From an uncultured Gammaproteobacteria bacterium (GTDB lineage: Bacteria > Patescibacteriota > Microgenomatia > PFEM01 > CAYIUX01): DNA of 48,155 nucleotides. Every line of letters starts with the position of its first letter. The first letter of the stretch is position 1. The position numbers and the translations under genes were made by a program. Location of the stretch: assembly GCA_964366795.1 (NCBI GenBank), contig CAYIUX010000001.1, positions 1 to 48,155 on the forward strand, read 5' to 3'. This document shows positions 690-36,964 of this stretch, in pieces. Under the pieces are notes generated by a model. It was given only the letters and a program-made list of their open reading frames with translations. It was not told the origin of the DNA and ran no database searches.

Positions 690-2129
690 CTAGTCAGCAA
701 GTTTAATCAGTTTAAAGCGATACATCTCTTTAAGGATTTTCCTGAAAATATCGGTTTTCAGGATTTCATAAAAGTACTTCCCGATTTTTTCTCCAAACAT
801 TGAATTTAGCCTATACTTAATTATCTTTTTTTCTGCCTCGGCTGAAGACCAGTTGAACATTTTAAGTCTTTTTTCTTTTGGAAAGTCTCTGGTTTCGAAT
901 TGGGTTCCAAAAGATTGCTCGGCGTTTTTAGTGATATAGTCTAAAGGATTATTAAGAAAACGACCCTTTTTTTCTACCCAATCCCATAAATCAGTATAAG
1001 GATAAACGACCATATTACTGATCCGCGGAATGTCAATGTCTGGAGATTTTTGAAAAAATTCGACCGATTTTTTGACTGTTTCTTCATTATCTTTTGGCGC
1101 GCCAACAATGAAAAAAGCCTTGACGATTAAACCGGCCCTTTTTGCCGCCTTAAGCGCTTTTTTAATTGTTCCAATGGTTTCTCCTTTTCTGATGGCTTTA
1201 AGTACTTTAGGGCTGGTTGATTCTATCCCTAAAGCGACAAGCCGACAGCCAGCCTTCTTCATCAACTGAAAAACTTCCTCATCCGCCCTGTCAGCTCTAA
1301 TCCCTTGAGCACATTGCCAAGAAATATCAAGTTTTCGGCGGATAATTTCTTTACAGATTTCTTTGACTCTTTTTTTGTCAAAATTAAAATTATCATCGAC
1401 AACAGTGAAATTTTTAGTGCGATATTTTTTAATATTCTGTTCGATTTCATCAACGACATTTTTTCCGCTTCTTCCCCGGTAAGTTCGACCATGGACATGC
1501 CAACTGGCACAAAAGATACAATTGTAAGGACATCCTCGGGAAGTGATTATTGGCAGTTCTAAAAAACCAGCCGCCCGGTATTCTTCTAAAGGCAACAAAT
1601 CAAAACGGGGAAAGGGAATTTTGTCAAGATCAAAAATTATTTTTGCCTGGTTGCGTTTATCAATGATTTCACCATTTTTATTTTTATAAATGACGCCCTC
1701 ACAATAAGAAAGACTTCGTTCTTTTTCCAAGCAATTAATCAGTTTCGGGAAAGATTTTTCACCCTCTCCTTTTACAATAACATCAACCTCCAGTGACTTT
1801 ATTAGCTCATTACCAACCAAAGAGGCATGCATTCCCCCCAAAACGGTAATTGTTTTTGGGGAGATTTTTTTAACAAATTGCAGTACTTGTTGCGCCCCTG
1901 GATAGTCAAAGCTTGTGGCGCTGACTCCGGCTACTTTGGGTTTAAATTTTTTAATCAATCTTTCAAGTTTTTCGTAACCATAATTTTTTAGCCTCATGTC
2001 AATTAACTTCACTTTGTGCCCCTTTTCTAGCAAAACTGAGGCTAAATAGCAAATCCCCAATGGCGGTGTCCGAGGAAGGCCAAAAAAACACCCTGAGACG
2101 GTTGGAGGATAAACAAGTAAAACTTTCAT
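690..2129 (-). CDS. B12-binding (class B) radical SAM enzyme
   Basis: 479 aa. The N-terminal cobalamin-binding Rossmann-like region reads MKVLLVYPP...LGICYLASVLLEKGHKVKLIDM...VLGGMHAS. The radical SAM cluster motif is SRGCPYNCIFCAS (CxxxCxxC). Its closest in-window paralogue is 3377-4798; both share a YPYTDLWDW/YPGTELYDW C-terminal region. Confidence 0.88.
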   Translation of the reverse strand: MKVLLVYPPTVSGCFFGLPRTPPLGICYLASVLLEKGHKVKLIDMRLKNYGYEKLERLIKKFKPKVAGVSATSFDYPGAQQVLQFVKKISPKTITVLGGMHASLVGNELIKSLEVDVIVKGEGEKSFPKLINCLEKERSLSYCEGVIYKNKNGEIIDKRNQAKIIFDLDKIPFPRFDLLPLEEYRAAGFLELPIITSRGCPYNCIFCASWHVHGRTYRGRSGKNVVDEIEQNIKKYRTKNFTVVDDNFNFDKKRVKEICKEIIRRKLDISWQCAQGIRADRADEEVFQLMKKAGCRLVALGIESTSPKVLKAIRKGETIGTIKKALKAAKRAGLIVKAFFIVGAPKDNEETVKKSVEFFQKSPDIDIPRISNMVVYPYTDLWDWVEKKGRFLNNPLDYITKNAEQSFGTQFETRDFPKEKRLKMFNWSSAEAEKKIIKYRLNSMFGEKIGKYFYEILKTDIFRKILKEMYRFKLIKLAD

Positions 2130-2141
2130 TCTGACTAGCAG

Positions 2142-2147
2142 TATAAT
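2142..2147 (+). promoter_or_regulatory. Candidate -10 box (TATAAT) abutting the start codon of the GT4 gene
   Basis: TATAAT lies at 2142-2147 within the 24-nt divergent gap, 6 nt before ATG 2154 and 12 nt before ATG 2160. No SD sequence lies between them. Confidence 0.25.
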
Positions 2148-2153
2148 AACATA

Positions 2154-3380
2154 ATGGTAATGAAAATTTGCATTTTAACCCACACTTATCCAAAATTTGC
2201 TGGCGACAGCACTGCCCCTTTTATGGCTGATTTAGCCCAAAATTATGCCAAATTGGGCCAGCAGGCTTGGGTGCTTACCCCGTTTGTGAAGGATTTTAAA
2301 AAACAACGACAAAAAAATCTCCAGGTTGTTCTTTACAAATACATTTGGCCTGAGCGATTACATCTTTTGGGATACTCACGCTCAATGTATGCCGATGTTC
2401 GCCTGCGGATGATCAACTATTTTCTGGAGCCGTGGATGTTTTTAGCAGCTGTTTGGCGGCTTTGGCGGTTGATCCAAAAGGAGAAAATCGATATAGTTCA
2501 CGCCCACTGGATTCTGCCTAACGGCTTGATTGCTGCCGTGGTTTGCCGGCTGACCAAAACTCCATTGGTGATTTCTATTCCTGGTTCGGATATTCAGGTG
2601 GCCAGGAAAAATCCCTTTTTTGCCAAAATGGCTCTTTTTGCTCATCAAACAGCTAATCTAGTGACCACCAATAGCGAGGACCTTAAGCAGGCGATGGTTG
2701 ATTTGGGAGCTGATCCGAAGAAACTTGAGATGATCGTTTATGGCATAGACAAAAACAAAATGAGAATTGATACTAGCCAGAATGTTAGATTAAGAAAAAA
2801 ACTGGGATTAAATCAAGATGATATTGTTGTCTTGGCCGTCGGGAGGTTAGTTTATAAAAAGGGGTTTGACATTTTAATTAAAGCTATGCCAGAAATTCTC
2901 AAGGAAAACCCAAAAGTAAAGGCAGTTATCGTTGGTGATGGTGATTTGAGACAAGAATTAATCGACTTAAGCCGGAAATTAAAAGTGGGAAAAAATGTTT
3001 TATTCACTGGGAGGGTGAGATACGATAAACTTTTGTACCTTTACAATCTAGCTGATATTTTTGTTATGCCCTCGGTCAGTCCACCCGCTGATGGTTTAAA
3101 CGTTTGTGTGGTTGACGCCATGGTTTGTGGAAAACCAATTGTGGCGACCAATATTGCCGGCAATCCCTTAGTTGTTAAAGATGGCGTAAATGGTTTATTA
3201 ATTCCCCAAAAAAGACCAGAACTTTTAGCCTTAGCGATTTTAAAATTAGCCTCCTCGGAAAGTTTACGCCGAAAATATGGTAAAATAGGCTACCAAATGG
3301 TTCATAAATATTTTACTTGGGATAAACTTGCCCGAAAGTATATTTACCATTTCCAAAAAATAATTAACTTCCAAAAATGA
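2154..3380 (+). CDS. GT4 family glycosyltransferase (GT-B fold, Glycos_transf_1)
   Basis: 408 aa (alternative ATG at 2160). It has a typical C-terminal donor-binding region: GRLVYKKGFDILIKA...VIVGDGDLR...VMPSVSPPADGLNVCVVDAMVCGKPIVATNIAGNPLVVKDGVNGLL. Its stop overlaps the next start (ATGA at 3377-3380). Confidence 0.88.
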   Translation: MVMKICILTHTYPKFAGDSTAPFMADLAQNYAKLGQQAWVLTPFVKDFKKQRQKNLQVVLYKYIWPERLHLLGYSRSMYADVRLRMINYFLEPWMFLAAVWRLWRLIQKEKIDIVHAHWILPNGLIAAVVCRLTKTPLVISIPGSDIQVARKNPFFAKMALFAHQTANLVTTNSEDLKQAMVDLGADPKKLEMIVYGIDKNKMRIDTSQNVRLRKKLGLNQDDIVVLAVGRLVYKKGFDILIKAMPEILKENPKVKAVIVGDGDLRQELIDLSRKLKVGKNVLFTGRVRYDKLLYLYNLADIFVMPSVSPPADGLNVCVVDAMVCGKPIVATNIAGNPLVVKDGVNGLLIPQKRPELLALAILKLASSESLRRKYGKIGYQMVHKYFTWDKLARKYIYHFQKIINFQK

Positions 3381-4798
3381 AGTTTCTTTTAGTCAATCCG
3401 CCGGCAATGGGTCGTTATTGGAAACCAGCTACTCCCCATGTTGGTTTTGGTTATTTGGCGGAAACGCTTTTGGCCAACAAACACCAAGTTGAAATTGCCG
3501 ATATGCGACTTAACATAAGCTTTTCCCAGTTGGTATCAAGAATCCAAAAATTTCGACCGGATTATATTGGAATCACTGCCGCTAGTTTAGAATACCAAAA
3601 AGTTTATGATCTTGTGGATAAAATTAAGGAAGGTTTTTCTATCCCCATTATCATGGGAGGTCCGCACGCCTCTATTGTTAAAGAACAGGTTTTACAATAT
3701 TCCAAAACCGATTGGGTAGTTTACGGAGAAGGGGAGAAAACCATTTTGGATATCGCCAGAAGAATACCACCGGCAAGAATCAAGGGCTTGATTTGGCGAA
3801 GGAAAGGAGAGATTGTCATAAACCCCCCTCGGGAGTTGATTTTTGATCTTGACGACCTTCCCTTTCCAAAATATAAAAAATTTTCTTTAGATAAATATTT
3901 GGAGCATAAAATTCCTTTAATTGGTGAACGGGGTTGCCCTTATGGTTGTACTTATTGTGCTTCTAGGTTAATTCTGGGCAGAGGATTTAGAAGAAGAAGC
4001 CCGGAAAATATTTTGGAGGAAATTAAATATTGGTATAAAAGGGGATATCAAGATTTTGGTTTTAATGACGATGAATTTACCGGCGATGCCGAATGGGCAG
4101 AAAAAATTTGTGATTTAATTATTAAAAACAATTTAAAAACCACTTTTGAACTTCGAACGGGAGTGAGGGTAGATAAGCTTAACGAAAATCTGCTTTTGAA
4201 AATGAAAGAGGCTGGTTTTTTCTTTTTTGCTTTTGGAATTGAATCGGCTGATCAGAAGGTATTAAATCTGATGAAAAAGGGGACGACACCGACGCAGGCA
4301 AAAAGGGCAGTTAAGTTAGTCAATAAACATGGTTTAGAATCAAGTGGATTTTTTATGATTGGACTTCCAGGAGATACACCAGTCAAATTTAGAAAAACCT
4401 TAAGGTTTGCCAAGGGTCTTGATTTAAGCGAAGTCCGTTTTTACAACACCGTCCCTTATCCAGGAACCGAACTTTATGATTGGGCTTTAAAAAATGGTCG
4501 ATTTTTGTACTCCCCTGAAGTTTATCTTAATAAATACGATCGTCTTCAACGCAATCCTGTTTTTGAAACCGATGATTTTCCGGTTGAAGAAAGACGAAAG
4601 GCTTTTGATTTAGGGGAGCAATTTTTTGTCGAACGATTGATTGTAAAAACAGTAGGAGAAAAGCTGGGTAGACCGTTGATTTTTCTTTGTAAAAATAATT
4701 TTCTTCGCCGTATAATTATAAAAATAGGCTTTCGTTTAACTCCCTGGGTGAGAAAAATCCAAAAATTAAGAAGAAAGCTGCTTCACCATGAAAGTTAA
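3377..4798 (+). CDS. B12-binding (class B) radical SAM enzyme
   Basis: 473 aa. The N-terminus reads MKFLLVNPP...VGFGYLAETLLANKHQVEIADM...IMGGPHAS. The cluster motif is ERGCPYGCTYCAS. It is translationally coupled to the upstream GT4. Confidence 0.88.
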   Translation: MKFLLVNPPAMGRYWKPATPHVGFGYLAETLLANKHQVEIADMRLNISFSQLVSRIQKFRPDYIGITAASLEYQKVYDLVDKIKEGFSIPIIMGGPHASIVKEQVLQYSKTDWVVYGEGEKTILDIARRIPPARIKGLIWRRKGEIVINPPRELIFDLDDLPFPKYKKFSLDKYLEHKIPLIGERGCPYGCTYCASRLILGRGFRRRSPENILEEIKYWYKRGYQDFGFNDDEFTGDAEWAEKICDLIIKNNLKTTFELRTGVRVDKLNENLLLKMKEAGFFFFAFGIESADQKVLNLMKKGTTPTQAKRAVKLVNKHGLESSGFFMIGLPGDTPVKFRKTLRFAKGLDLSEVRFYNTVPYPGTELYDWALKNGRFLYSPEVYLNKYDRLQRNPVFETDDFPVEERRKAFDLGEQFFVERLIVKTVGEKLGRPLIFLCKNNFLRRIIIKIGFRLTPWVRKIQKLRRKLLHHES

Positions 4799-6782
4799 GC
4801 CAATTTTTGTTGGATTACTAATTACCTTAATTTTTTTTCTAATTTCTTTGTTTACTCTTTCTGATTACAACGTTAACTGGGATGAGCCAGTTCATTTTAT
4901 GCGCGGTCAGGCTTATTTGCGATATTTTTTAACTGGAGAGAAAAATTATAAAAACTTACCTTCTTCTCTTCCACGCTTAAGTATTTATCAAAGCAATACC
5001 TTAGATGGAGAGTATTTTTTGGAAAACGACTCCGGTCATCCTCCCTTAAACGGAATCTTAGCCGCTTTAACGAATTATATTTTTTACCAAAAATTAGGGA
5101 TTTTAGGAGATATTGAGGCTTATCATCTGTTTATTATCTTAGTCTCAACCTGCTTAGCTTTTCTTATTTTTTATTGGGCGAGGGAAGAGTATGGTTTGTT
5201 TGCGGGTGTAGTTGCCTTTTTATCTTTAACCTTTTACCCCTTATTTTTTGGTGAGTCTCACAATAATATTAAAGATCCGGTTGAAGCCTCATTTTTTGCT
5301 TTTGCTCTTTATGGGTTTTATAAAGGGATAAAATGCCAAAATTGGCGGTGGATAATTTTTTCTTCTTTATTTGCCGGTTTTGCCTTAGGAACAAAATTTA
5401 ATATTTTGTTCCTCCCTTTTATTCTTTTTCCCTGGCTGTTGGCTCTGGGGATTAAAAAAATTTTTTCCAAAAAATTTGCCCTCTTCTTTCTTGTTTACCC
5501 CTTTATTGTTTTGGTGATTTTTTTTGCTTCTTGGCCTTTTCTCTGGCAAGAGCCGATTTTTAATCTTTTAAAGACATTTGGGTATTATAAAGAAATTGGA
5601 ACTGGGGCAGTTTATCAGCCTCAGTTTATCGTGGCCGGCTTCAGTACTTATCCTCTGCAAGCGATTATTTTTACCACCCCTTTGGTTGTTTTATTTTTTT
5701 CATTCATCGGCATCATTGGTGCTTTTGCTAATTTAAGAAAAAAGCAAAAAACTTCTTTTTTGTGGCTTTTGTGGTTTTTAATTCCGATTATGAGGGTAAG
5801 TTTGCCTGGGGCAAGTATTTATGGCGGGGTCAGACAAATTATGGAATATATTCCAGCAATGGCGTTATTAACTGGCTTAGGAGCCAGCTCTATGGTTACA
5901 TGGTTACATGGCTATATGGCTAGAATAAAAAAACCATTTAACCATTTAACCATTCAGCTATTAATCCTTCTTATGTTTCTTCCTATTACTTTTAAAATAA
6001 TTTCCATCCATCCTAATCAAAATCTTTACTTTAATCCCTTAATTGGAGGGTTGCAGGGGGCGGCAGAAAAAAATTTCCCTGGTTGGGGAATAACCCTTGG
6101 CAATCCATATCTCCAGGGAGTTAAATGGCTTAATCAAAATGTGGAGCCAAATGCCAAACTGGTTTTATCTTTGGGGATGATGACTAATGTACCAAAGATA
6201 AAACTCCGAGAGGATATTGAATTTTCTAATGCCTTAGAAAGTCTCACCTGGCGGGAGGGAGAATATATTATGGGTTTGACATACTATAGTTTCCCCTTGC
6301 CGTATGATACCCAATACCCGGAAAGATATCTTGAGCCTGGTTGGGAAAAGAAAGTTGAGGGGATGTCAATTTTGAAAATTTGGAAAAACGATTTGGCTCA
6401 CACAAAAAATGGTTTTGTTGCCGAAAAAGATATCACCTCGGAAACAAAAATTGCGGTTGAAGATTATGGATTGTTAGTAGACTTCCAAAAACCAGTTTTT
6501 TTGACCAGAATGGAGGTATTTTTGGATCCTAAAAAGACAAATGAAATTAAATGGGGAGTAATTTCCACCTCTTTGGATGGGGTTTCTTGGGATGAGCAAC
6601 CAGAAGGTCTTTCCCAAAACCAAATTCCCCGAGTTCAAAAACTGAAAAATGGAATGATAACCCATTTTTTTGCTGCTATCCCAGCGCGATTTTTAAAAAT
6701 AAAGATAACCCCCTTTGATAGAAGTTATTTAAGGGTTGGTAATAGTGTTAAAATAACAACATTGCGAGATTTAAAACCCTAA
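4788..6782 (+). CDS. GT-C membrane glycosyltransferase (PMT_2/ArnT/GT39-like) with C-terminal beta-sandwich domain
   Basis: 664 aa and multi-pass. The first-loop catalytic-type motif is NWDEPVHFMRGQAY, followed by DSGHPPLNGILAA (an HPPL motif typical of PMT/ArnT-like enzymes). The C-terminal ~120 aa are soluble. It is about 70% identical over the N-terminal region to 14154-15803. Confidence 0.78.
   Translation: MKVKPIFVGLLITLIFFLISLFTLSDYNVNWDEPVHFMRGQAYLRYFLTGEKNYKNLPSSLPRLSIYQSNTLDGEYFLENDSGHPPLNGILAALTNYIFYQKLGILGDIEAYHLFIILVSTCLAFLIFYWAREEYGLFAGVVAFLSLTFYPLFFGESHNNIKDPVEASFFAFALYGFYKGIKCQNWRWIIFSSLFAGFALGTKFNILFLPFILFPWLLALGIKKIFSKKFALFFLVYPFIVLVIFFASWPFLWQEPIFNLLKTFGYYKEIGTGAVYQPQFIVAGFSTYPLQAIIFTTPLVVLFFSFIGIIGAFANLRKKQKTSFLWLLWFLIPIMRVSLPGASIYGGVRQIMEYIPAMALLTGLGASSMVTWLHGYMARIKKPFNHLTIQLLILLMFLPITFKIISIHPNQNLYFNPLIGGLQGAAEKNFPGWGITLGNPYLQGVKWLNQNVEPNAKLVLSLGMMTNVPKIKLREDIEFSNALESLTWREGEYIMGLTYYSFPLPYDTQYPERYLEPGWEKKVEGMSILKIWKNDLAHTKNGFVAEKDITSETKIAVEDYGLLVDFQKPVFLTRMEVFLDPKKTNEIKWGVISTSLDGVSWDEQPEGLSQNQIPRVQKLKNGMITHFFAAIPARFLKIKITPFDRSYLRVGNSVKITTLRDLKP
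5892..5956. repeat. Two in-frame octanucleotide tandem arrays separated by an A-rich spacer
   Basis: The first array is atggttac|atggttac|atggctat|atggctag (5892-5923). The spacer is aataaaaaa. The second array is accattta|accattta|accattca (5933-5956). The two arrays are partly complementary (atggt/accat). Together they encode MVTWLHGYMARIKKPFNHLTIQ in a loop of the GT-C. Confidence 0.85.
6411..6779 (+). other. C-terminal discoidin (F5/8 type C)/galactose-binding-like domain of the GT-C at 4788-6782
   Basis: The soluble tail reads ...LVDFQKPVFLTRMEVFLD...GVISTSLDGVSWDEQPEG...IPARFLKIKITPFD. The 'S-x-DG-x-xW' and 'ARF/YLKI/RI' pattern is characteristic of F5/8-type-C-like modules. This region is absent from the paralogue at 14154-15803. 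Confidence 0.4.
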
Positions 6783-6789
6783 GAAAAGT

Positions 6790-7773: not shown

Positions 7774-7845
7774 TCTTCCTTTGAACTCTAATAACCATCA
7801 AAAGGATGCCAGTTAAAAGAGAGTTATTATAGGGATGTATTTAAA

Positions 7846-9312: not shown

Positions 9313-9315
9313 ATC

Positions 9316-14139: not shown

Positions 14140-14153
14140 TTTAGCAGAAAGTG

Positions 14154-16636: not shown

Positions 16637-16637
16637 T

Positions 16638-28908: not shown

Positions 28909-29566
28909 TGTGGTTATACCAGCCAAAAACGAAGAAGAAGGGATTGAAAAGATTATAAAACAAGTCCGCCCCCTGGCGGATGAAATTTTGGTTGTTGATG
29001 GTCATTCAAAAGATAAAACTCGGCAAATTGCCAAGGAATATGGGGCCAAAGTCGTCTTAGATGGAGGTAGAGGAAAGGGAGATGGTATAAGGAAGGGGAT
29101 TAGAAAAGCAAAAGGAGATATTATTGTTTTTATTGATGCCGATGGTTCTCATAACCCTCGCGATATTCCTAAATTGGTGGCACCAATTAAAAAGGGAGAA
29201 GCCGATTTGGTAGTCGCTTCTCGGGCAAAAGGAGGAAGTGATGAGGTTAGACTGGATTTTGAAGGTTTATTTAGACAAATTGGTAGCGAAATTGCCGCCA
29301 TTTTAGTTAATCTTCGTTGGCGGGCAAACTTAACTGATATTCAAAATGGGTTTCGGGCGATAAGGAAAAAAACTGCTTTAGCTTTAAAGTTGGAATCTAA
29401 TGGGTTTGAAATTGAAGAGGAAATGATTATGAAATGTCTTAAACACAAGGGAAGAATCGTAGAAGTTGCTGGTCATGAATATCAAAGGAAATGGGGAGTT
29501 TCTAAACTCCCAACAATTCAAGCCTGGAGGTTTCTTTTAAGGCTTTTTAAAGAATTACTAAGTTGA
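28898..29566 (+). CDS. GT2 polyprenyl-phosphate sugar synthase-like (soluble Dpm1-type)
   Basis: 222 aa. Motifs are VSVVIPAKNEEEGI...ILVVDGHSKDKT...GKGDGIRKGI...VFIDADGSH. It is the positional equivalent of 16638-17372. Confidence 0.82.
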   Translation: MKVSVVIPAKNEEEGIEKIIKQVRPLADEILVVDGHSKDKTRQIAKEYGAKVVLDGGRGKGDGIRKGIRKAKGDIIVFIDADGSHNPRDIPKLVAPIKKGEADLVVASRAKGGSDEVRLDFEGLFRQIGSEIAAILVNLRWRANLTDIQNGFRAIRKKTALALKLESNGFEIEEEMIMKCLKHKGRIVEVAGHEYQRKWGVSKLPTIQAWRFLLRLFKELLS

Positions 29567-30989: not shown

Positions 30990-32500
30990 GAAAAAAAAGA
31001 CAACTTCAAAATTTTTTGCCTATTTTTATAATTGTCATTTTGACGTTAATCGCTTGGTATAGGATAAGTTTTCAATCTTTTTCGGGAGAGGGCTGGAGTT
31101 ATTTTGAAAAAAGATTGGCGGTTTTTGATGAGGGAGGAAGATTAATGACCAAAGATGTTTTTTTTGCTGCCGATTCTTTTGCCCGGCTTCTTTTTCCTTT
31201 TATAATTCCTATTTTCCAAGATAATATCAGCGCCTATATGACATTTTTCTTGTTTTTATTTATTTTGCTCATTGTTTCATTTTATGTCTTGGTCTGGAAG
31301 ATAACTAATAATAAAATTATTGGTTTTTTAGCTACAGTTTTTTGGGGCGTAAACTATCTGGGATTTTTTACCAATTTGGCGGTAGGACAAGTTCAATTTT
31401 TTATTTCCCGAATTCCTAATTTAATTCCCTTGTTTGCTGCTTTTTATTTTTATGTTAAAAGAAATTATTTCTTAAGTTTTGGTCTTTATTTTTTATCAAT
31501 TTTTATGTCTCGATTTGGTGTTCCTCTTCTATCCTTATTTATTTTTTATACTGTGATGGATATCCTCTTGGAACAAAAAAAATTAAGGAAGATTGTTGAG
31601 GGAGTTCTTTTTTTAACCCCATTTTTCTTAGCGAGTGTTCTCTTATTAAACGGCAATCAAATTATGGCGATTGCTGATAACAGGAATTTCTTAGATTTCT
31701 TAATCCATTATCCGAATTTTCTTGAACTTTTGAAAAAGATTTTTTTTCAGTTGACAGTGGTTACCTTCCCCTTCTTTATTTTGCAGCAATTAGGGGTTGT
31801 GAAATTTCTCATAACCATCTGGAGTGATGTATTCAGTAATAGTCAGACGATAGTTTTCGGCCTAACCCCTTTAGTGGTAATTGTCTATCTAGCAGCAACG
31901 ATTTATGTATTTAGGAAAGGAGAAAAATTAAGAAAACTAGTGTTCTCTTTCTTGTTTTCTTCAATTTTCTGCCTTTTGGTTAATATTTATCACGAAAGAA
32001 TGGACATTTTCACTAGTTGGGACACCGATCGGTATTTTTATCTACCTTTAATCGGCGTTTCTTTTTTTTGGGCGACATTTCTTTTTCTACTGCTTTATCA
32101 GAAGAGTATTTTTAAAAGATTAATATTCTTAGGTCTTGTTGTTTTTTGGTTATTTTTTAATATTAAGATGAATTTTATGGCTTTTGCCGAAGTCCAACCA
32201 AGGTTTACTGCCAGTTTGGCGACAATAGCTTATGTTAAATCATTGTCAACCGACCTCCCGGATAATTCCCTAGTCGTTCTTCCCAGAGAGATGATATTTC
32301 ATGGGCAAGAATTTATTGAGAGATTTTACGGAAGAGATAAAAAGATTAAGTTTATGACAACTGGTGACCCTGCTTGGGAAAATAATCAGATTGTGATTCT
32401 TTCTAAATTTGACCCGGAAAAAGTTTCTATTCTTAAATATGATTATAATAAAAATAAAGTAGTTGACATAACCGATGAATATCTTAATCTTAAACCCTAA
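30986..32500 (+). CDS. Multi-pass membrane protein, distant GT-C-like candidate
   Basis: 504 aa with about 11 TM segments. The N-terminal loop SFSGEGWSYFEKR, followed by KIIGFLATVFWGVNYLG, is loosely colinear with the FFQQDEW...LLFAVNSIS proteins at 23573 and 26420. The function is uncertain. Confidence 0.5.
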   Translation: MRKKRQLQNFLPIFIIVILTLIAWYRISFQSFSGEGWSYFEKRLAVFDEGGRLMTKDVFFAADSFARLLFPFIIPIFQDNISAYMTFFLFLFILLIVSFYVLVWKITNNKIIGFLATVFWGVNYLGFFTNLAVGQVQFFISRIPNLIPLFAAFYFYVKRNYFLSFGLYFLSIFMSRFGVPLLSLFIFYTVMDILLEQKKLRKIVEGVLFLTPFFLASVLLLNGNQIMAIADNRNFLDFLIHYPNFLELLKKIFFQLTVVTFPFFILQQLGVVKFLITIWSDVFSNSQTIVFGLTPLVVIVYLAATIYVFRKGEKLRKLVFSFLFSSIFCLLVNIYHERMDIFTSWDTDRYFYLPLIGVSFFWATFLFLLLYQKSIFKRLIFLGLVVFWLFFNIKMNFMAFAEVQPRFTASLATIAYVKSLSTDLPDNSLVVLPREMIFHGQEFIERFYGRDKKIKFMTTGDPAWENNQIVILSKFDPEKVSILKYDYNKNKVVDITDEYLNLKP

Positions 32501-33683
32501 TATCACCACCGGTGGTGCTCAAAGAACTGTTCTAAACCTGGCTTATTATCTTGAAAGATTAGGGAACGAGGTTTGGCTGTTTACTACTCTTATAGACCAA
32601 AAGACCATACCAGAAAAATTTAAAAATTTAAAGTTTATTGAATCAAAGCACAAAATTCTAAAAGCTGGAGGGCAAACCACCCAATATCAAAACATCGATA
32701 ATTTATTTCTTTTGCTAATTCGACTTTTTAAAATTAAATTTGAGCTGATAAAAATAATTGACCAAAAGAAAATAGATGTTGTTATTGTTCACCAGCAACC
32801 CTTCAATTGGGTTTTGGCTTTTTATTTCAAATGTCCAGTGATTTGGAATTGCTTTGAACCGGTCGCCCTTTGGCGACCTAAAGACAGCAATTACTTTCCC
32901 CTAAGAGTTAAGAAAAATAATTTTATTCAAGACATATTAGAAAGGGTTTATGAATGGATAGATAAAAAAATAATTCGTTATGGAATAAAGTATATTTTTG
33001 TTTTATCGGAGCAAACTGAAAATCAAATTTATAACCTTTATAAAAAAAGGGCAATTGTCTTTCATCCAGGAATCGGTCCGGACTTGTTGAGCCAAAAGAT
33101 TAATTTAAAAGCGCTTAAAAAATACAATCTTAGTTCAGATTTTAATATTCTTCAAGTCGGTCAGTTTACTTATGAAAAAAATCAACTCTTGACTATTGAT
33201 GTTTTTAAAAAAATTCAGCAAAAAATTCCTAAAGCAAAATTAATATTAATAGGAAACGGACCCTTAAGAGAAAAAATAGAGGAAAAAATAAGAAATTTAA
33301 AACTTCAAGAAAGTGTAATCTTAACCGGCAGACTACTACCACTTAATAGCCTTTTATTGGCGGCTTTTTACCAAAAAGCCGATGTTTTAGTCTTTCCCTC
33401 TCTAATTCAATCATGGGGATTGGTCCCTTTTGAGGCGCTTGCTTTTGGAACAATTCCCTTGGTTTCGGAAAAATGCGGTGCCGCTGAGTTGATTGAAAAA
33501 GAAAAAATTGGCTTGGTGATGAAATTAAGCCATGATGATTATTACCGAAAACTTATTTATATTTATGGACACAAAGGAAAAATAAAAGAAATGGCGGAAA
33601 AAGGAAAGAAATATACTCTGGCTAAGCTTACTTACAAGGTTTACGCTAGAAAAATTCAGGAGCAATTATGGAAGCTTCGATAA
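32475..33683 (+). CDS. GT4 family glycosyltransferase
   Basis: 402 aa. The N-terminus is MNILILNPNITTGGAQR. The C-terminal domain reads LILIGNGPLRE...VFPSLIQSWGLVPFEALAFGTIPLVSEKCGAAELIE (an EX7E-type region). Confidence 0.83.
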   Translation: MNILILNPNITTGGAQRTVLNLAYYLERLGNEVWLFTTLIDQKTIPEKFKNLKFIESKHKILKAGGQTTQYQNIDNLFLLLIRLFKIKFELIKIIDQKKIDVVIVHQQPFNWVLAFYFKCPVIWNCFEPVALWRPKDSNYFPLRVKKNNFIQDILERVYEWIDKKIIRYGIKYIFVLSEQTENQIYNLYKKRAIVFHPGIGPDLLSQKINLKALKKYNLSSDFNILQVGQFTYEKNQLLTIDVFKKIQQKIPKAKLILIGNGPLREKIEEKIRNLKLQESVILTGRLLPLNSLLLAAFYQKADVLVFPSLIQSWGLVPFEALAFGTIPLVSEKCGAAELIEKEKIGLVMKLSHDDYYRKLIYIYGHKGKIKEMAEKGKKYTLAKLTYKVYARKIQEQLWKLR

Positions 33684-34489
33684 TTATTCCGTCCACCAGA
33701 ACTAAAGGCTTAAAAAAAACCAGAGAGTCTCTTTTGCGTCAAAAAACTAAATTTTCTTATGAGATAATTGTTATTAAGAACCTTCTGCCAGGACAGGCGC
33801 GGAATTTGGGAGCGAAAAAAGCTTCAGGTAAATATCTTTTATTTTTGGATGACGACTGTATTGCATCCAAAGATTGGATAGAAAAAAATATTAATTTTTT
33901 AAAGAGTCGAAAAAATATTGGTGCTGTTGGAGGAAAAATAGTCGGCAAATCACCTAAATTTTTTAGTCGCTGTACTGACTATACCAATTTCTGGCGCCAG
34001 CAAAATAATCAACTAAGAAAGACAAGCCAACTTTATACCGCTTCACTGGCAGTGAAGAAGGAAGCATTCCTAAAGGTCAGTGGTTTTGATGAAAAAGCTA
34101 AAGTTGGCGAGGATGTTGATTTTATTAATAAATTAGAAAAATATGGTTATATCAGCTGGTATAACCCAGAAATAGTGGTTCTTCACAATCACAAGAGAGA
34201 TACTCTTAGTAAGTTTCTCAAGTATATGTATAACAATGGCTTAGCAACTGGTCTTTATATTTTAAAAACTCACCAGAGAATTGCCCTTGTTAGGGTGTTA
34301 TTACCAATTTTCAAACAAGCCTACTTTTTATTTATAATCCCAATGGCAATTTTATACACTGGAGCGAATCTTTATTTGAACTTTTCTTCAAACTGGAAAA
34401 TAATTTTTTTAATGCCTTTTATCTTTTTGGGTTATCTTGTTTATCATTTGGGTATTGCCGTAAGATTATTAAAGGAGATTTTTCAATGA
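33668..34489 (+). CDS. GT2 family glycosyltransferase with C-terminal TM segments
   Basis: 273 aa. Motifs are SIIIPSTR...GQARNLGAKKASGKYLLFLDDDC (DxD) and GEDVDF. It has two to three C-terminal hydrophobic helices. Confidence 0.78.
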   Translation: MEASIIIPSTRTKGLKKTRESLLRQKTKFSYEIIVIKNLLPGQARNLGAKKASGKYLLFLDDDCIASKDWIEKNINFLKSRKNIGAVGGKIVGKSPKFFSRCTDYTNFWRQQNNQLRKTSQLYTASLAVKKEAFLKVSGFDEKAKVGEDVDFINKLEKYGYISWYNPEIVVLHNHKRDTLSKFLKYMYNNGLATGLYILKTHQRIALVRVLLPIFKQAYFLFIIPMAILYTGANLYLNFSSNWKIIFLMPFIFLGYLVYHLGIAVRLLKEIFQ

Positions 34490-35547
34490 TTATTAGAAAA
34501 TTAAAAAAACTTATTCATCTTTCTTTATTACGAAGTAACAAACTATGTTTATTTAAAAATTATTTTAAAACCCCGCCGATTTTAATTTTTTTTGTTACTT
34601 CAGCCTGTAATTCAAAATGTCCTCATTGTTTTTACAAGAATAATTTAAATAGAAAGAACGACCTAACCCTAGAGGAAATTAAAAAAATTAGTCAATCAAT
34701 GGGGAAAATTTATCAACTTGAACTTTCCGGAGGCGAACCATTTTTAAGAAAAGATTTGCCAGAAATTTGTGAAATATTTTATAAAAATAATCATTTAGAA
34801 GAACTTCAGATTCCCACTAATAGTTTGTTAGCCAATAAAATTTACAAGGTGGTGAAAACAATTTTACGGCAACGTCCAGGGATTGAACTAAATCTTAATT
34901 TATCTTTAGATGGAACAGAAAAGGTGCACGACACAATGAGGGGGATTAAGGGAAATTTTAAAAAAGTAATCGCCAATTATCATAATTTAGTTGGTCTTAA
35001 AAAAACTTATAAAAATTTTTTCATCAACATCACCTCCACTGTTACTAAAAAGAATATTGACGATTTGTTTGTTTTAGCTGACTGGGTTGTGGACAATATG
35101 CCATTAATTAGCCATCATTACTTGGGATATGAAAGAGGAAGATTTTATACTGATAAAATAGATTTACCCCAGGTTGACAAATTGTGTTCCCTTAATGGAA
35201 AAATTGAAAGATTATATCAAAGAAAAAATGGTTTAATTTATACCGGCCTTATTAAAAAAATAAATGAAGCTAAAGTTAAAACCCTCGTAGCTAAACATCA
35301 GATAGTTCCTTGTGTCGCAGGAAAATTGGTTGGGGTAATTTATGAGGACGGAAGAATTGCCAATTGTGAAATGCTGCCGGAAACAGGCAAGATAAAGGGA
35401 GGCAATTTTCCTAAGGCTTGGCAAAGTCAAAAGCGATTAAACCAGCGGAAAGAAATAATTGAGAAAAAAGTTTGTTATTGTGCTCATGAATGCTTTATTT
35501 CTCCAAGCTTTACCCATGGACTACCAAATAAAATTATCGGAATCTGA
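34486..35547 (+). CDS. Radical SAM enzyme with C-terminal SPASM/twitch domain
   Basis: 353 aa. The cluster motif is FVTSACNSKCPHCFY and the SAM-binding motif is SGGEPFLRKD. The C-terminal CVAGKLVGVIYEDGRIANC...VCYCAHEC fits Cx..Gx4C...CxCx3C. Confidence 0.85.
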   Translation: MIIRKLKKLIHLSLLRSNKLCLFKNYFKTPPILIFFVTSACNSKCPHCFYKNNLNRKNDLTLEEIKKISQSMGKIYQLELSGGEPFLRKDLPEICEIFYKNNHLEELQIPTNSLLANKIYKVVKTILRQRPGIELNLNLSLDGTEKVHDTMRGIKGNFKKVIANYHNLVGLKKTYKNFFINITSTVTKKNIDDLFVLADWVVDNMPLISHHYLGYERGRFYTDKIDLPQVDKLCSLNGKIERLYQRKNGLIYTGLIKKINEAKVKTLVAKHQIVPCVAGKLVGVIYEDGRIANCEMLPETGKIKGGNFPKAWQSQKRLNQRKEIIEKKVCYCAHECFISPSFTHGLPNKIIGI

Positions 35548-36964
35548 AAAGAAAAAGCTTAGATTTTTATTTATAAATCCAGCCACAACTATCAGCGAAA
35601 CTCCTTATGTTCCCCTGGGGATTGCTTATTTGGCGGCCATTTTGGAGGAAAATAATATTTCTGTTTGCTGTCTTGATTATCAGATTGAGAAGCTTGATTT
35701 TCAGAAACTGCGTCGATTAATAAAAGATAAAGCTATCAATATTGTCGGCATTACTAGTACGACTCCAGCTATCTTTAATGCCTATAAAATTGTTAATTTT
35801 GTTAAAAGACTCAATCCCAAAATAAAAATTTTAATGGGAGGAATTCATCCAACCGTTCTTCCCGAAGAAGCCCTTAGTCATGGGGTTGATATTGTTGTTA
35901 GAGGTGAAGGCGAGAAAATATTTACGGAATTGGTACCATTTTTAGCTGGAGGAAAAGCAAAAAATCTTGCCAAAATTAAAGGTATTTCCTTCAAAGTAGG
36001 GAAAAAATTTAGTCACAATCCTCCTCAAGAAAGAATAACGGATTTGGATGGAATACCATTTCCGGCTAGACATCTCTTTGAGTTTCCCAAAAATTATATG
36101 CCCTTTTTAAAACTAAAAAAGGAGGAATTTTCTGCCCATCTTATCAGTAGTCGTGGTTGTACTGGTAAATGCGTTTTTTGTAATAAACAAATATTTTCTC
36201 GACAGATTGCCTCTCGGTCAGCGGAAAATATTGTTGAAGAAATAAAAATGCTTAAAGATAAATATGGAATAAAAGAAATCTCTTTTGCCGATGATTTTTT
36301 CACTTTTGATGCTAAAAGAGTCAAGGAAATCTGTAGACTACTGATTAAAGAAAAACTAAATATCAAATGGGCCTGTTCGAATACTCGAGTTGATGTTCTT
36401 GATAAAAAAATGTTTGAGTTAATGAAAGCCAGTGGCTGTTATCGAGTTTTGTTTGGGGTGGAGTCCGGGAACAATCAAGTTCTGAAAAAAATTGGCAAAG
36501 ATATTACTTTAGGTGAGGTAAAAAAAGCTTTTAAGACGGCGCAAAAGGCTGGATTGTTGACCGGAGGTTATTTCATTATTGGCCATCATGTCGATACCCC
36601 TCGGACGATTAATCAAACTATAAATTTTGCCAAAAATTTGAATGCCGATGCAGTTCAGTTTACGATTAATACCCCTTTTCCAGGAACGGCTCTTCACCAA
36701 ATTTTAAAAAGCAAAGGCTGGTTGCTTTCGGAAAACTGGGAGGATTATCAGATGTTTGAAAAACCGCTGTTTTTTACCGATAAATTATCGCCCGGATTTA
36801 TCTTGAAAATGTATAAAAAAGCCTGGCTAACCTGTTATTTATTTAATTACAAGTTTATTCTCAAACATCTTAAAAAATTATTTTCCAGTAAGGAGAATTT
36901 CTATTTTTATATTTTATCTTTAAAACAAGTCCTCAAAAGATTTTTGGGTAAGAGATTATACTAA
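35516..36964 (+). CDS. B12-binding (class B) radical SAM enzyme
   Basis: The tracked ORF starts at 35459. ATG 35516 gives MDYQIKLSESEKKKLRFLFINP..., matching the 'LLINP' N-termini of the paralogues and overlapping the upstream gene by 32 nt. Motifs are MGGIHPTVLPEE and VRGEGE. The cluster motif is SRGCTGKCVFCNK. Confidence 0.83.
   Translation: MDYQIKLSESEKKKLRFLFINPATTISETPYVPLGIAYLAAILEENNISVCCLDYQIEKLDFQKLRRLIKDKAINIVGITSTTPAIFNAYKIVNFVKRLNPKIKILMGGIHPTVLPEEALSHGVDIVVRGEGEKIFTELVPFLAGGKAKNLAKIKGISFKVGKKFSHNPPQERITDLDGIPFPARHLFEFPKNYMPFLKLKKEEFSAHLISSRGCTGKCVFCNKQIFSRQIASRSAENIVEEIKMLKDKYGIKEISFADDFFTFDAKRVKEICRLLIKEKLNIKWACSNTRVDVLDKKMFELMKASGCYRVLFGVESGNNQVLKKIGKDITLGEVKKAFKTAQKAGLLTGGYFIIGHHVDTPRTINQTINFAKNLNADAVQFTINTPFPGTALHQILKSKGWLLSENWEDYQMFEKPLFFTDKLSPGFILKMYKKAWLTCYLFNYKFILKHLKKLFSSKENFYFYILSLKQVLKRFLGKRLY

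Follow-up and report, generated by a model that had tools for sequence, protein, structure and literature searches.

The window, a stretch of 48,155 nt, is the entire contig of an ultra-small groundwater bacterium (Patescibacteria, probably Microgenomates). Its radical SAM (rSAM) genes lie among glycosyltransferase, methyltransferase and membrane-protein genes. Genes are cited below by their first coordinate.

690-2129, -, B12-binding-domain rSAM no. 1 (Pfam Radical_SAM 9e-27, B12-binding 2e-21; CPYNCIFC at residue 200)
2154-3380, +, GT4 glycosyltransferase (Pfam Glycos_transf_1 7e-44, Glyco_transf_4); 4-nt overlap with rSAM 3377
3377-4798, +, B12-binding-domain rSAM no. 2 (Pfam Radical_SAM 2e-24, B12-binding 6e-18; CPYGCTYC)
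4788-6782, +, GT-C membrane glycosyltransferase (Pfam PMT_2 2e-11; eight predicted TM)
6790-7773, +, rSAM with SPASM domain, no. 1 (Pfam Radical_SAM 5e-17, SPASM 8e-13)
7846-9312, -, B12-binding-domain rSAM no. 3, the most divergent paralogue (Pfam; CPYQCTYC)
9316-10218, -, polyprenyl-phosphate glycosyltransferase-type GT2, ArnC/GtrB-like, 2 TM
10218-11330, -, GT-C (Pfam PMT_2 3e-6, PMT 4e-6; ten TM)
11317-12639, -, GT-C (Pfam PMT_2 8e-15; nine TM)
12600-14123, -, 10-TM membrane protein without family match
14151-15803, +, split copy of the 4788-6782 GT-C (ORFs 14151-15221 and 15234-15803; PMT_2 1.5e-13)
15809-16636, +, GT2, EpsD/TuaG-like, other than polyprenyl-phosphate type (Pfam Glycos_transf_2 2e-29; NCBIfam profile)
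16620-17372, +, polyprenyl-phosphate glycosyltransferase-type GT2, short soluble form; 4-nt overlap with rSAM 17369
17369-18769, +, B12-binding-domain rSAM no. 4 (Pfam Radical_SAM 2e-30, B12-binding 5e-19; CPFSCTFC)
18766-19392, +, class I SAM methyltransferase (Pfam Methyltransf_31/11/23)
19389-21608, +, GT-C (Pfam PMT 9e-12, PMT_2 5e-11; nine TM)
21605-22909, +, nucleotide-sugar dehydrogenase (NCBIfam NDP-sugDHase 404 bits against a cutoff of 189.8; no NCBIfam equivalog model reached)
22906-23589, +, class I SAM methyltransferase (Pfam Methyltransf_11 4e-22)
23573-25300, +, GT-C-fold membrane protein, memY family (47% identity to paralogue 26390)
25287-26423, +, rSAM with SPASM domain, no. 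2 (Pfam Radical_SAM 9e-26, SPASM 2e-12)
26390-28069, +, GT-C-fold membrane protein, memY family (AF2/Foldseek)
28066-28908, +, GT2, TuaG/EpsD-like (Pfam Glycos_transf_2 2e-27; NCBIfam)
28898-29566, +, polyprenyl-phosphate glycosyltransferase-type GT2, short form, directly upstream of rSAM 29574
29574-30989, +, B12-binding-domain rSAM no. 5 (Pfam), of a widespread, highly conserved family
30986-32500, +, divergent GT-C-like membrane protein, memZ (hhalign to memY)
32475-33683, +, GT4 glycosyltransferase (Pfam Glycos_transf_1 6e-29)
33668-34489, +, GT2, EpsD/MftF/HpsE-like (Pfam, NCBIfam); 4-nt overlap with rSAM 34486
34486-35547, +, rSAM with Cys-rich SPASM/twitch-like tail, no. 3 (Pfam Radical_SAM 1.5e-12, Fer4_12)
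35516-36964, +, B12-binding-domain rSAM no. 6 (Pfam Radical_SAM 8e-27, B12-binding 2e-24; CTGKCVFC)
36961-38178, -, GT4 glycosyltransferase (Pfam Glycos_transf_1 7e-21)
38214-38864, +, class I SAM methyltransferase (Pfam Methyltransf_11 3e-8)
38861-39871, +, NAD-dependent sugar epimerase/dehydratase (Pfam Epimerase 2e-40; RmlB/GalE-like, under equivalog cutoffs)
39853-43179, +, large AftD-like GT-C (Pfam GT-C_AftD 5e-6, 25.1 bits, just below the 26 cutoff; ten TM)
43119-43490, +, 123-aa ORF, four TM by topology prediction
43454-45100, +, AftD-like GT-C paralogue, corresponding to the N-terminal part of 39853 (28% identity, 406 residues)
45097-46551, -, DUF2079 polytopic membrane protein (Pfam DUF2079 2e-52)
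46808-48155, +, GT4 genes: N-domain-only ORF 46808-47362 (Pfam Glyco_transf_4 1e-6), then a putative GT4-like ORF, called from reading the sequence, that runs off the contig end

Profile searches matched the Radical_SAM, B12-binding and SPASM models. Nine ORFs exceeded the Pfam gathering cutoff for Radical_SAM, and a motif scan found one intact CX3CX2C in each (9/9) and none in any other ORF of at least 100 aa in the window. The B12-binding domain (PF02310) was N-terminal and above cutoff in six (690, 3377, 7846, 17369, 29574 and 35516), and SPASM (PF13186) was above cutoff in 6790 and 25287. A sequence-only reading of this DNA had described a dense rSAM cluster in a glycosyltransferase-rich island, with intact CxxxCxxC motifs throughout. 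Both points held, but the count of ten (seven B12-type and three SPASM) fell to nine (six and three); that reading itself listed only six B12 genes. Its island limit at 36964 was too short, as glycosylation genes, including the AftD-like GT-C, DUF2079 and GT4 genes, continue to the contig end (48,155 nt).

The rSAM genes neighbor GT2, GT4, GT-C and class I methyltransferase genes, mostly as described earlier, and also the NDP-sugar dehydrogenase and the polytopic 12600-14123 protein. The single dehydrogenase and single epimerase claimed before are both present, the epimerase beyond the limit then drawn. Ten of the 30 same-strand junctions were exact 4-nt overlaps, 14 were overlaps of other length and none was a gap of more than 12 nt, making the earlier phrase "most junctions ATGA-coupled" loosely right. 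The largest intergenic gaps, 72 and 256 nt, leave no room for a peptide precursor, in agreement with the earlier statement that none is adjacent.

Radical SAM and glycosyltransferase families

None of the nine rSAMs reached a curated NCBIfam cutoff. The top model for 690 was BchE, whose cutoff of 481 lies far above the 198 bits scored, and the nearest curated model overall was HpnJ, for 29574 (317 bits against 577.6). The 29574 family comprised 4480 homologues at E<=1e-20, the best 120 of which were 52-100% identical and included other phyla; C22, C286, C306 and C382 were invariant. The AF2 model of 29574 (pLDDT 93.6) had as its top fold match AprD4 (TM-score 0.80), a sugar-modifying enzyme that acts on the sugar ring without binding cobalamin. 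Patescibacteria are not generally known to synthesize cobalamin. The "B12" label could thus be misleading, and the class B (cobalamin-dependent) designation previously given to the six is an assumption.

Pairwise identity among the rSAM paralogues was 25-36%, and several were closer to relatives in other phyla (58%, 46%, 41% and 38%) than to one another; the closest outside relative of 3377, at 41%, is on a Saccharibacteria chromosome (L011). These are old, distinct paralogues and no recent amplification, as argued before. The three subfamilies proposed earlier were only weakly visible: 7846 was a clear outlier, whereas the other five were roughly equidistant. The start of rSAM no. 6 is uncertain (35459, 35486 or 35516), and the gene call in L001 matches 35486.

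Pfam SPASM was found in two of the three genes said to have SPASM tails. The 6790 protein carries CNLACLMC and seven C-terminal Cys, and the best PDB sequence matches of 25287 were CteB, SkfB, SuiB, GDGT-MAS and BlsE. The third, 34486, had no Pfam match to SPASM; it has a five-Cys tail (C276, C294, C330, C332, C336) and aligns near full-length to the SPASM-family NCBIfam models PapB (positions 5-311 of 330), ScmE and NirJ2.

Three B12-domain rSAMs (7846, 17369 and 29574) each come right after a small polyprenyl-phosphate-type GT2 (DPMS/ArnC/GtrB/AglJ/PpgS-like), that of 7846 being the ArnC-like 9316-10218, and GT-C transferases follow or surround these pairs. The 9316 protein matched ArnC in the PDB (9bhc, 1.2e-45) over residues 3-292, its whole length with the TM region, and also matched GtrB (5ekp, 4e-29); it scored 184 bits with NCBIfam ArnC, under the 529 cutoff. 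The 16620 protein matched NCBIfam PgfS, ArnC, AglJ, PpgS and Dol-P-hexose transferase, all below cutoff, and 28898 matched Pyrococcus Dol-P-Man synthase (5mlz, 7.5e-21, residues 1-217), AglJ (150 bits) and PpgS (85 bits). There are three such GT2s versus nine rSAMs; the remaining rSAMs are placed after a GT4, a GT-C or another type of GT2, or alone.

The memY protein 26390 had no Pfam match of its own. Its AF2 model (pLDDT 93) has a GT-C fold, with the top 14 Foldseek PDB matches all GT-C (PglB, ArnT, DPY19, Pmt4, ALG9, AftB). The loop motif FFQQDEW is invariant in the family, a few homologues have PMT_2 and one carries the NCBI name GT39. C-terminal TPRs occur on memY relatives elsewhere, as they do on TMTC O-mannosyltransferases. 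The memZ protein aligned to the memY profile in hhalign (probability 98.4%, E 7e-15, 466 columns), and its relatives include a natural DPMS-like GT2::memZ fusion (P0297). Modeled structure and profile alignment thus assign memY and memZ, two families outside Pfam recognition, to GT-C. The 12600-14123 protein had no Pfam or NCBIfam match and was negative in hhalign to GT-C profiles. Against the 4788-6782 protein, the two split-copy ORFs showed 57% identity (N-terminal part) and 47% identity (C-terminal part).

Gene order in other genomes

The synteny survey of the 29574 family covered 80 genomes, spread over more than ten phyla, and 72 loci were evaluable. Orthologues in Patescibacteria, Actinomycetota, Elusimicrobia, Planctomycetota, Omnitrophota and some archaea shared 50-60% identity. 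Immediately upstream was a 28898-type GT2 in 31/72 loci and, in 12 further loci, a 17369-type B12-rSAM, usually itself behind a GT2; a GT2 or another B12-rSAM was therefore upstream in 43/72. In Thermoleophilia, 17369 orthologue-like genes are placed between a GT2 and a 29574-type gene. About one third of loci lacked a recognized GT2 upstream, an uncertain fraction since the probes were window proteins only. An rSAM came immediately after 48 of the 73 polyprenyl-phosphate-type GT2 genes in the surveyed loci, and a same-strand ORF of at least 300 aa with at least 7 TM started within 2.5 kb downstream in 23/57. Among metagenome relatives of 7846, the gene directly upstream was a GT2 in 12/38 loci and another B12-rSAM in 6/38.

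Pfam contexts revealed a like mixture of GT2, B12-rSAM, SPASM-rSAM, PMT_2, DUF2079 and methyltransferase genes in Elusimicrobia, Actinomycetota and Patescibacteria; DUF2079 also adjoins rSAM genes at L006 and L007, both of them loci from Actinomycetota. The rSAM-glycosyltransferase linkage, on which the sequence-only reading had staked its proposal, was strongly conserved. The rSAM share of island genes is ~23%, compared with ~1% in typical genomes, and together with this conservation it rules out chance co-location. The core trio of lipid-carrier GT2, rSAM and GT-C recurs in more than ten phyla, and our literature search found no description of such a module, which suggests an unstudied route to unusual surface sugars.

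Possible tailoring of lipid-linked sugars

Our best reading, at about even odds, is that the rSAMs tailor lipid-linked sugars subsequently transferred by GT-C enzymes. At the cytoplasmic face, a polyprenyl-phosphate-type GT2 (9316, 16620 or 28898) would charge polyprenyl phosphate with a hexose taken from a nucleotide sugar. The rSAM encoded just downstream (7846, 17369 or 29574) would then modify the loaded sugar through a radical reaction, in some cases alongside a class I methyltransferase; C-methylation, deoxygenation, epimerization, oxidation and ring contraction are candidates for that reaction. Other B12-domain and SPASM/twitch rSAMs may work at the same stage. The tailored sugar would be flipped across the membrane and moved by one of ~12 GT-C-type transferases (PMT_2, memY/memZ, AftD-like, DUF2079) to an extracytoplasmic acceptor, possibly a glycan, lipoglycan or protein. 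The GT4s, other GT2s, NDP-sugar dehydrogenase and epimerase would supply and build the remainder. Diversification of sugars after loading had been suggested before; the GT2s upstream of three B12-rSAMs and the GT-C genes that follow support it, and the substrate and chemistry we infer entirely.

Sugar tailoring at the polyprenyl-phosphate stage, ahead of GT-C transfer, is known for DprE1/DprE2 and ArnD. The rSAMs HpnJ and calditol synthase Cds have been implicated genetically in remodeling a lipid-attached hexose (PMC13459092). However, an HpnJ-like ring contraction would destroy the anomeric leaving group required in a GT-C donor, and the chemistry of the nearest family is thus not directly transferable to a lipid-donor model. 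The rSAM might instead act before the GT2, on the nucleotide sugar, and gene order fits either sequence of steps. A Pfam scan found no Wzx, Wzy or initiating phosphoglycosyltransferase in the window, which fits assembly from monosaccharide lipid donors. With middling confidence, we read nearly the whole contig as a cell-envelope glycosylation system running mainly on lipid-linked single sugars.

For the flipping step of the lipid-linked model, the window held no recognizable flippase (GtrA, ArnE/F or Wzx). The 43119-43490 ORF, which had no family match, is a possible small flippase by its size and topology only. Actinomycetota loci additionally hold an adjacent pair of EamA/SMR-type small membrane proteins, which we read as ArnE/ArnF-like.

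Radical SAM genes and extent of the locus

ORFs of at least 100 aa were translated from the window (n = 39) and all were scanned against Pfam. Nine ORFs contained exactly one CX3CX2C motif each, and 9/9 scored above the gathering cutoff for Radical_SAM (PF04055), at 48-107 bits against 29.5. Six of these carried an N-terminal B12-binding domain (PF02310), at 59-86 bits against a cutoff of 32.1. The sequence-only reading had counted ten radical SAM (rSAM) genes, seven of the B12 type and three of the SPASM type; we found nine, six plus three. A tenth was sought, and CX3CX2C was absent from all other window ORFs of at least 100 aa. The five Pfam-negative window ORFs were polytopic membrane proteins.

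Radical SAM genes of the window, named in the text by their start coordinates
690-2129, minus strand: B12-rSAM, PF02310 above cutoff
3377-4798: B12-rSAM, PF02310 above cutoff
6790-7773: SPASM rSAM, PF13186 48.9 bits against a cutoff of 21.5
7846-9312, minus strand: B12-rSAM, PF02310 above cutoff
17369-18769: B12-rSAM, PF02310 above cutoff
25287-26423: SPASM rSAM, PF13186 47.8 bits against a cutoff of 21.5
29574-30989: B12-rSAM, PF02310 above cutoff
34486-35547: candidate SPASM-type rSAM, no PF13186 match even at E<=10
35516-36964: B12-rSAM, PF02310 above cutoff

The 34486-35547 protein possessed five C-terminal cysteines and aligned near full length to the PapB, ScmE and NirJ2 models of NCBIfam, with scores below cutoff.

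The earlier placement of the island's end at 36964 proved too narrow: the remainder of the contig was also filled with glycosylation-type genes, including several GT4s, an epimerase/dehydratase, a methyltransferase, a DUF2079 membrane protein, and a putative GT-C of 1108 aa that resembles AftD, together with its paralogue. A 184-aa ORF at 46808-47362 had the GT4 N-terminal domain only and may be a truncated duplicate, and a second ORF read by eye as a GT4 (47356-48155) ran off the contig end. At the contig start, a DUF5667 protein with one TM segment (58-687) was convergent with the first rSAM gene; DUF5667 was also seen in one relative of the memZ membrane protein family described below.

Genes were tightly packed. 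Among 30 same-strand junctions, ten were exact 4-nt overlaps and 14 were overlaps of other lengths, and same-strand gaps never exceeded 12 nt. The widest intergenic gaps anywhere in the contig were 72 and 256 nt, and gaps this small leave no room for precursor-peptide genes. The GC content of the window, an entire contig of 48,155 nt, was ~35%. No tRNA and no Rfam family, including the cobalamin riboswitch, reached threshold in the window, and the Pfam scan revealed no B12 genes there. Several cluster types were considered and ruled out. Against a RiPP cluster stood the lack of intergenic room and of any precursor, protease or transporter; against a hopanoid cluster, the absence of hpn genes and the sub-cutoff scores; and against a Wzx/Wzy O-antigen-type locus, the absence of a flippase, a polymerase and an initiating phosphoglycosyltransferase.

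Pairwise identity among the six B12-rSAMs was 25-36%, with 7846 as the outlier. Closer relatives were found outside the window for 29574 (58%), 7846 (46%), 3377 (41%, in a complete Saccharibacteria chromosome) and 17369 (38%). On sequence comparison, the B12-rSAMs are evidently old, distinct subfamilies. Their relationships to characterised class B rSAMs were judged by NCBIfam scores and PDB matches as a proxy. None of the nine rSAMs reached a curated NCBIfam cutoff. The top models for the B12 type were HpnJ, BchE and the Sden_1168 and PhpK P-methyltransferase models. HpnJ (TIGR03471) was the best or near-best match for 5/6 B12-rSAMs and covered 29574 over its full length; the best score was 317 bits (29574) against a cutoff of 577.6, and other rSAMs scored 119-215 bits where HpnJ was listed. 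BchE scored at most 220 bits against a cutoff of 481 for the B12-rSAMs, and BchE, PhpK, HpnR, BzaD, MgmA, the ladderane rSAM and other named B12-rSAM families of NCBIfam were all well under cutoff. The SPASM-type proteins showed weak scores against the tungsten-cofactor maturase, NirJ and PapB models.

An AF2 model of the 29574 protein, built from a 58-sequence alignment, had a pLDDT of 93.6 and a pTM of 0.92. Its best fold match was AprD4 (E 4e-28, TM 0.80/0.83), which was also the best PDB sequence match (9e-21); the next fold matches were the cobalamin enzymes MgmA, TsrM, OxsB, TokK and CysS. AprD4 is a 1,2-diol dehydratase that works on the sugar ring of paromamine. It does not bind cobalamin (2026 review, PMC12931638). 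Because the best match works without cobalamin, the label "B12-dependent", and with it cobalamin use by the six B12-domain rSAMs, is an assumption here. In the 29574 family, C22, C286, C306, C382 and H350, all outside CX3CX2C, were invariant in 53/53 orthologues examined. The window paralogues shared at most two of the four extra cysteines (C286 and C306, in most paralogues). The invariant cysteines may mark an auxiliary Fe-S cluster or family-specific catalytic thiols.

Glycosyltransferases and membrane proteins

The six GT2s of the window were of two kinds, three of the polyprenyl-phosphate (lipid-carrier) type and three EpsD/TuaG/HpsE-like. The 9316-10218 protein (300 aa, two C-terminal TM helices) matched ArnC at 1.2e-45 over residues 3-292 and also matched GtrB. 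The 28898-29566 protein (222 aa) matched the catalytic domain of Pyrococcus dolichol-phosphate mannose synthase (5mlz) at 7.5e-21 over residues 1-217, as well as AglJ and PpgS, and the 16620-17372 protein resembled PgfS, ArnC, AglJ and PpgS (NCBIfam). None of the named equivalogs ArnC, AglJ, PpgS and PgfS was reached (for example, ArnC 184 vs 529 bits and AglJ 150 vs 325). These three proteins match best, and are predicted to be, polyprenyl-phosphate glycosyltransferase-type GT2s. Each was encoded directly upstream of a B12-rSAM, in the GT2/rSAM pairs 9316/7846 (minus strand), 16620/17369 and 28898/29574.

Same-well assemblies differed from the window in GT2 genes. In one fetched locus (L001, 1711-1753, vs window ~29294-29310), 43 extra nt broke GT2 28898-29566, and another (L002, 1-314) diverged fully from the window upstream of 28300, inside GT2 28066-28908. 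These differences are either strain-level variation or assembly artefacts.

Five window ORFs passed the cutoff of PMT_2 or PMT (GT-C) in Pfam, and four further polytopic proteins (23573, 26390, 30986 and 12600) had no Pfam match. The AftD-like 39853-43179 protein scored 25.1 bits against the GT-C_AftD cutoff of 26. Two adjacent ORFs separated by 12 nt, 14151-15221 and 15234-15803, were 57% and 47% identical to the N- and C-terminal parts, respectively, of the GT-C at 4788-6782; this split copy may be due to an assembly error, or may be a pseudogene or an enzyme that truly works in two pieces.

Proteins 23573 and 26390 (memY), paralogues of each other, come from a family found mostly in Microgenomates, a few members of which carry PMT_2 and one of which is named GT39. 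The family showed an invariant FFQQDEW near the N-terminus, a D-E loop motif. In a Foldseek search with the memY AF2 model (pLDDT 93.0), the top 14 PDB fold matches were all GT-C, among them PglB, ArnT, DPY19, Pmt4, ALG9, AftB, Pmt1/2 and AftD; the matches were modest, with E-values of 1e-4 to 3e-2 and TM-scores of 0.32-0.43. A PDB profile search with a memY alignment that included TPRs was swamped by TPR proteins, none of them informative on the membrane domain.

A further membrane protein, memZ (30986-32500), was encoded directly after the 29574 rSAM and aligned to the memY profile with 98.4% probability over 466 columns (hhalign). The fold matches thus assign memY to the GT-C enzymes, and the alignment ties memZ to them by way of memY. 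A word-indexed search of 5.8 billion proteins gave four memZ homologues, and an exhaustive one gave 191. The protein evolves very fast, though the rSAM that it overlaps by 4 nt keeps 50-60% identity across phyla. One protein from the exhaustive search (P0297, 742 aa) was a natural fusion of a GT2 domain like that of Dol-P-Man synthase (3-219) and a memZ-type membrane domain (236-710). By its predicted domains, P0297 is a Rosetta-stone link between a lipid-carrier GT2 and the memZ family. The memZ family gave no match in a PDB profile search, and local iterative HMM searches of the unannotated membrane proteins against the ORFs of the fetched loci showed no connection to PMT_2. The polytopic 12600-14123 protein had no Pfam or NCBIfam match and no hhalign match to GT-C profiles.

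Conservation in other genomes

A sequence identical to the 29574 protein was present on contigs from the 0.1-µm fraction of Hainich groundwater well H43 (ERZ1292632, ERZ1292629; Logan ERR3858116), and the nearest relatives were named Patescibacteria, Levybacteria and Gottesmanbacteria. A search with this protein gave 4480 proteins at E<=1e-20. The best 120 of these 4480 were 52-100% identical and came from Patescibacteria, Actinomycetota, Elusimicrobia, Omnitrophota, Nitrospirota and Desantisbacteria, among others. In a scan of one genome per GTDB species, 126 loci of the family were confirmed and 80 kept, the ORFs of which were annotated with the window proteins as probes. The kept loci also took in Planctomycetota, Deltaproteobacteria, Clostridia, Aminicenantes, Woesearchaeota and Methanosarcinales.

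Contexts in one genome each of Elusimicrobia, Actinomycetota and Patescibacteria all showed a small GT2 (216-228 aa; Pfam) one or two genes upstream of the 29574 orthologue; it was directly upstream in two of the three, and another B12-rSAM intervened in the third. More B12-rSAM and SPASM-rSAM genes lay nearby in all three, with, variously, PMT_2, DUF2079 and methyltransferases. Among the 72 loci with enough upstream sequence, a 28898-type GT2 was directly upstream on the same strand in 31, a 17369-type B12-rSAM in another 12 (usually with a GT2 before that rSAM) and a methyltransferase in 6. Across the kept loci, 48 of 73 lipid-carrier-type GT2s were followed immediately by an rSAM, about 31 of the 48 as a consequence of how the loci were chosen. 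Downstream, a same-strand ORF of at least 300 aa with at least seven TM segments began within 2.5 kb in 23/57 loci; among these ORFs were PMT_2 proteins, memY relatives with TPRs at the C-terminus (Omnitrophota, UBP2) and, in Saccharibacteria, an AftD-like protein. Each kept locus contained one to seven rSAM genes in at most 21 kb, so this contig is not alone in having a dense cluster. With the divergent 7846 as query, a metagenome scan gave 53 loci, with a GT2 directly upstream in 12 of the 38 that could be evaluated and another B12-rSAM in 6/38.

In two Actinomycetota loci (L006 and L007, ~6400-12300), a PNP_UDP_1 nucleoside phosphorylase lay just upstream of a GT2 and two B12-rSAMs. PNP_UDP_1 is the family of HpnG, and this neighbour is a possible echo of the hopanoid side-chain pathway. 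The same loci contained an adjacent pair of small EamA/SMR-type membrane proteins, which we read as ArnE/ArnF-like and as a possible flippase. Orthologues 44-55% identical to 29574 were seen in three archaeal MAGs (L037, L047 and L086; an uncultured archaeon, Woesearchaeota and Methanosarcinales), two of them with a GT2 upstream in the same gene run, which suggests interdomain transfer of the module or contaminated bins.

Proposed tailoring of lipid-linked sugars and alternative readings

In the recurrent unit, a lipid-carrier GT2 is followed by at least one rSAM, at times together with a methyltransferase, and then by a GT-C. The donors of GT-C enzymes are polyprenyl-phosphate-linked sugars, and tailoring of a sugar on its lipid carrier is established for ArnD and DprE1/DprE2. 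Only two rSAMs have yet been connected with lipid-bound hexoses, HpnJ and calditol synthase (Cds); the evidence is genetic only and places their probable action after glycosyl transfer (PMC13459092). Given the unit, the GT-C donor type and these precedents, we favour rSAM tailoring of polyprenyl-phosphate sugars before GT-C transfer. The rSAMs would tailor the lipid-linked sugar, and a GT-C would then move it to an envelope acceptor. In its full form, which we put forward tentatively, the proposal is that the rSAMs act directly on polyprenyl-phosphate monosaccharides and could give non-canonical donors (C-methylated, deoxygenated, epimerised or otherwise rearranged) that dedicated GT-Cs install on the cell surface, bypassing nucleotide-sugar tailoring. 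Such a system would be widespread in uncultivated anaerobes (Patescibacteria, Omnitrophota, Elusimicrobia, Planctomycetota, Thermoleophilia, DPANN) and ninefold in this small genome.

The rSAMs may instead act earlier, on nucleotide sugars or soluble precursors, with the GT2 then loading the modified sugar onto a lipid or directly onto the glycan. DesII, BtrN, BlsE, AprD4 and GenK, all sugar-modifying rSAMs with soluble substrates, turned up as PDB or NCBIfam matches, the window encodes an epimerase and an NDP-sugar dehydrogenase, and an operon order of GT2 before rSAM need not be the order of reaction. However, the partner is specifically a polyprenyl-phosphate-type GT2 and not any GT, HpnJ, the closest of the named families, probably acts on a sugar that the GT2 has already put on a lipid, and few other nucleotide-sugar tailoring genes were seen in the cluster; we consider this order of events somewhat unlikely. 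Rather unlikely, in our assessment, is that the GT2-rSAM pairs make end-product glycolipids, either by turning a lipid-bound hexose head group into a carbocycle that resists hydrolysis (the role proposed for HpnJ and Cds) or by modifying the lipid itself, the GT-Cs being a separate co-located pathway. Such products would fit the HpnJ matches (top or near-top for 5/6 B12-rSAMs, full length for 29574), the standing of HpnJ and Cds as the only known rSAMs tied to lipid-bound hexoses, the lipid-modifying GDGT-MAS among the PDB matches of the SPASM-type proteins, and the PNP_UDP_1 gene beside the GT2 in Actinomycetota loci. Every score, however, was far under the HpnJ cutoff, and hopanoid and lipid-synthesis genes were absent from the window. 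The recurrence of GT-Cs directly downstream in several phyla and the GT2::memZ fusion also argue that the membrane transferases share the rSAM pathway.

Modification of peptides or proteins by the rSAMs (in RiPP-like fashion, or to mature an enzyme or glycoprotein, as in the anSME-type formation of formylglycine), with the GTs decorating the same protein, would agree with the best PDB matches of the SPASM-type proteins, which were the peptide maturases CteB, SkfB and SuiB, and with their weak matches to the W-cofactor, PqqE and PapB models. Methylation of peptides or proteins is known for some B12-rSAMs, the matches included ApyD, MgmA and RiPP C-methyltransferase models, and the TPR-bearing GT-C relatives suggest protein acceptors. 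This is nevertheless improbable: the gene spacing leaves no place for a precursor, no protease, transporter or leader-recognition (RRE) domain was found in the window by Pfam, all family matches were far under cutoff, and the conserved partner is a lipid-carrier GT2 and not a peptide. One GT-C copy split into two ORFs and sibling assemblies that differ inside or beside GT2 genes could be taken as signs of accidental co-location or of decaying paralogues with no joint function. Against this, 9/9 rSAMs were full length with intact motifs, gene coupling was tight, and the 29574 family was 50-60% identical across phyla with conserved neighbours. This cross-phylum synteny effectively refutes accident or decay.

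Both halves of the system are of known kinds. A full-text literature search found no description of an rSAM / polyprenyl-phosphate GT2 / GT-C module, and recent reviews on B12-rSAM and lipid-modifying rSAM enzymes made no mention of it. If the rSAMs tailor lipid-linked sugars, they would add a new enzymatic layer to the textbook scheme of lipid-carrier GT2, flippase and GT-C, and would give a function to a very large cross-phylum family (thousands of sequences, 50-60% identical between phyla) that is now generically named. Unusual sugars would be predicted on the surfaces of episymbiotic ultra-small bacteria, whose envelopes mediate host attachment. There is also a cofactor question: organisms unable to make cobalamin would rely on scavenged B12 for envelope synthesis, or the clade has dropped the cofactor, like AprD4. 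The conserved GT2-rSAM pair is small enough for a direct co-expression test.

Among known systems, the hopanoid HpnJ system is similar in that a hexosamine is attached to a lipid by a GT2 and is probably then remodelled there by a B12-domain rSAM whose gene lies nearby (PMC13459092). It differs in that window scores were at most 317 bits against the HpnJ cutoff of 577.6, the partner GT2 is DPMS/ArnC-like with no match to HpnI, and GT-Cs, absent from the hopanoid pathway, follow in the window; shc (squalene-hopene cyclase), hpnH, hpnG, hpnI and hpnK were not found among the 39 window ORFs. Cds of Sulfolobus is alike by description only, as an rSAM implicated in the conversion of a lipid-bound glucose head group to a carbocycle (PMC13459092), but it is an enzyme of archaeal tetraether lipid head groups. 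The antibiotic sugar-tailoring rSAMs (AprD4, GenK/GenD1, Fms7, BtrN, DesII, BlsE) likewise perform radical chemistry on sugar rings; AprD4 was the best PDB sequence and fold match of 29574, and BlsE, BtrN and DesII were among the matches of 25287. These enzymes, however, act on soluble pseudo-oligosaccharides or nucleotide/nucleoside sugars in secondary metabolism, AprD4 was ~19% identical to 29574, and the window contained no aminoglycoside or nucleoside scaffold genes.

In the three-component systems of extracytoplasmic glycosylation (GtrB/GtrA/GtrC; ArnC-ArnD-ArnE/F-ArnT; PpgS with Rv3779; mycobacterial DPR to DPA by DprE1/E2, then Aft/Emb), the lipid-linked monosaccharide comes from a polyprenyl-phosphate GT2 and is transferred on the outside by a GT-C; the Arn and DPA pathways also change the sugar chemically before it leaves the lipid. 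The window GT2s matched ArnC, GtrB, DPMS, AglJ and PpgS, and its GT-Cs matched PMT_2, AftD and ArnT-like folds. To our knowledge, tailoring in the known systems of this kind is by a deformylase or a flavin/NADH epimerase and never by an rSAM. The window differs in the unusual numbers of GT-C (~12) and rSAM (9) genes in one locus and in lacking a recognisable GtrA or ArnE/F flippase: GtrA, ArnE/F (EamA/SMR), Wzx, Wzy and an initiating phosphoglycosyltransferase were all undetectable there. A 123-aa ORF at 43119-43490, with four predicted TM segments and no family match, overlapped both AftD-like genes; from size and topology only, it resembles a small lipid-linked-sugar flippase and is a candidate for one.
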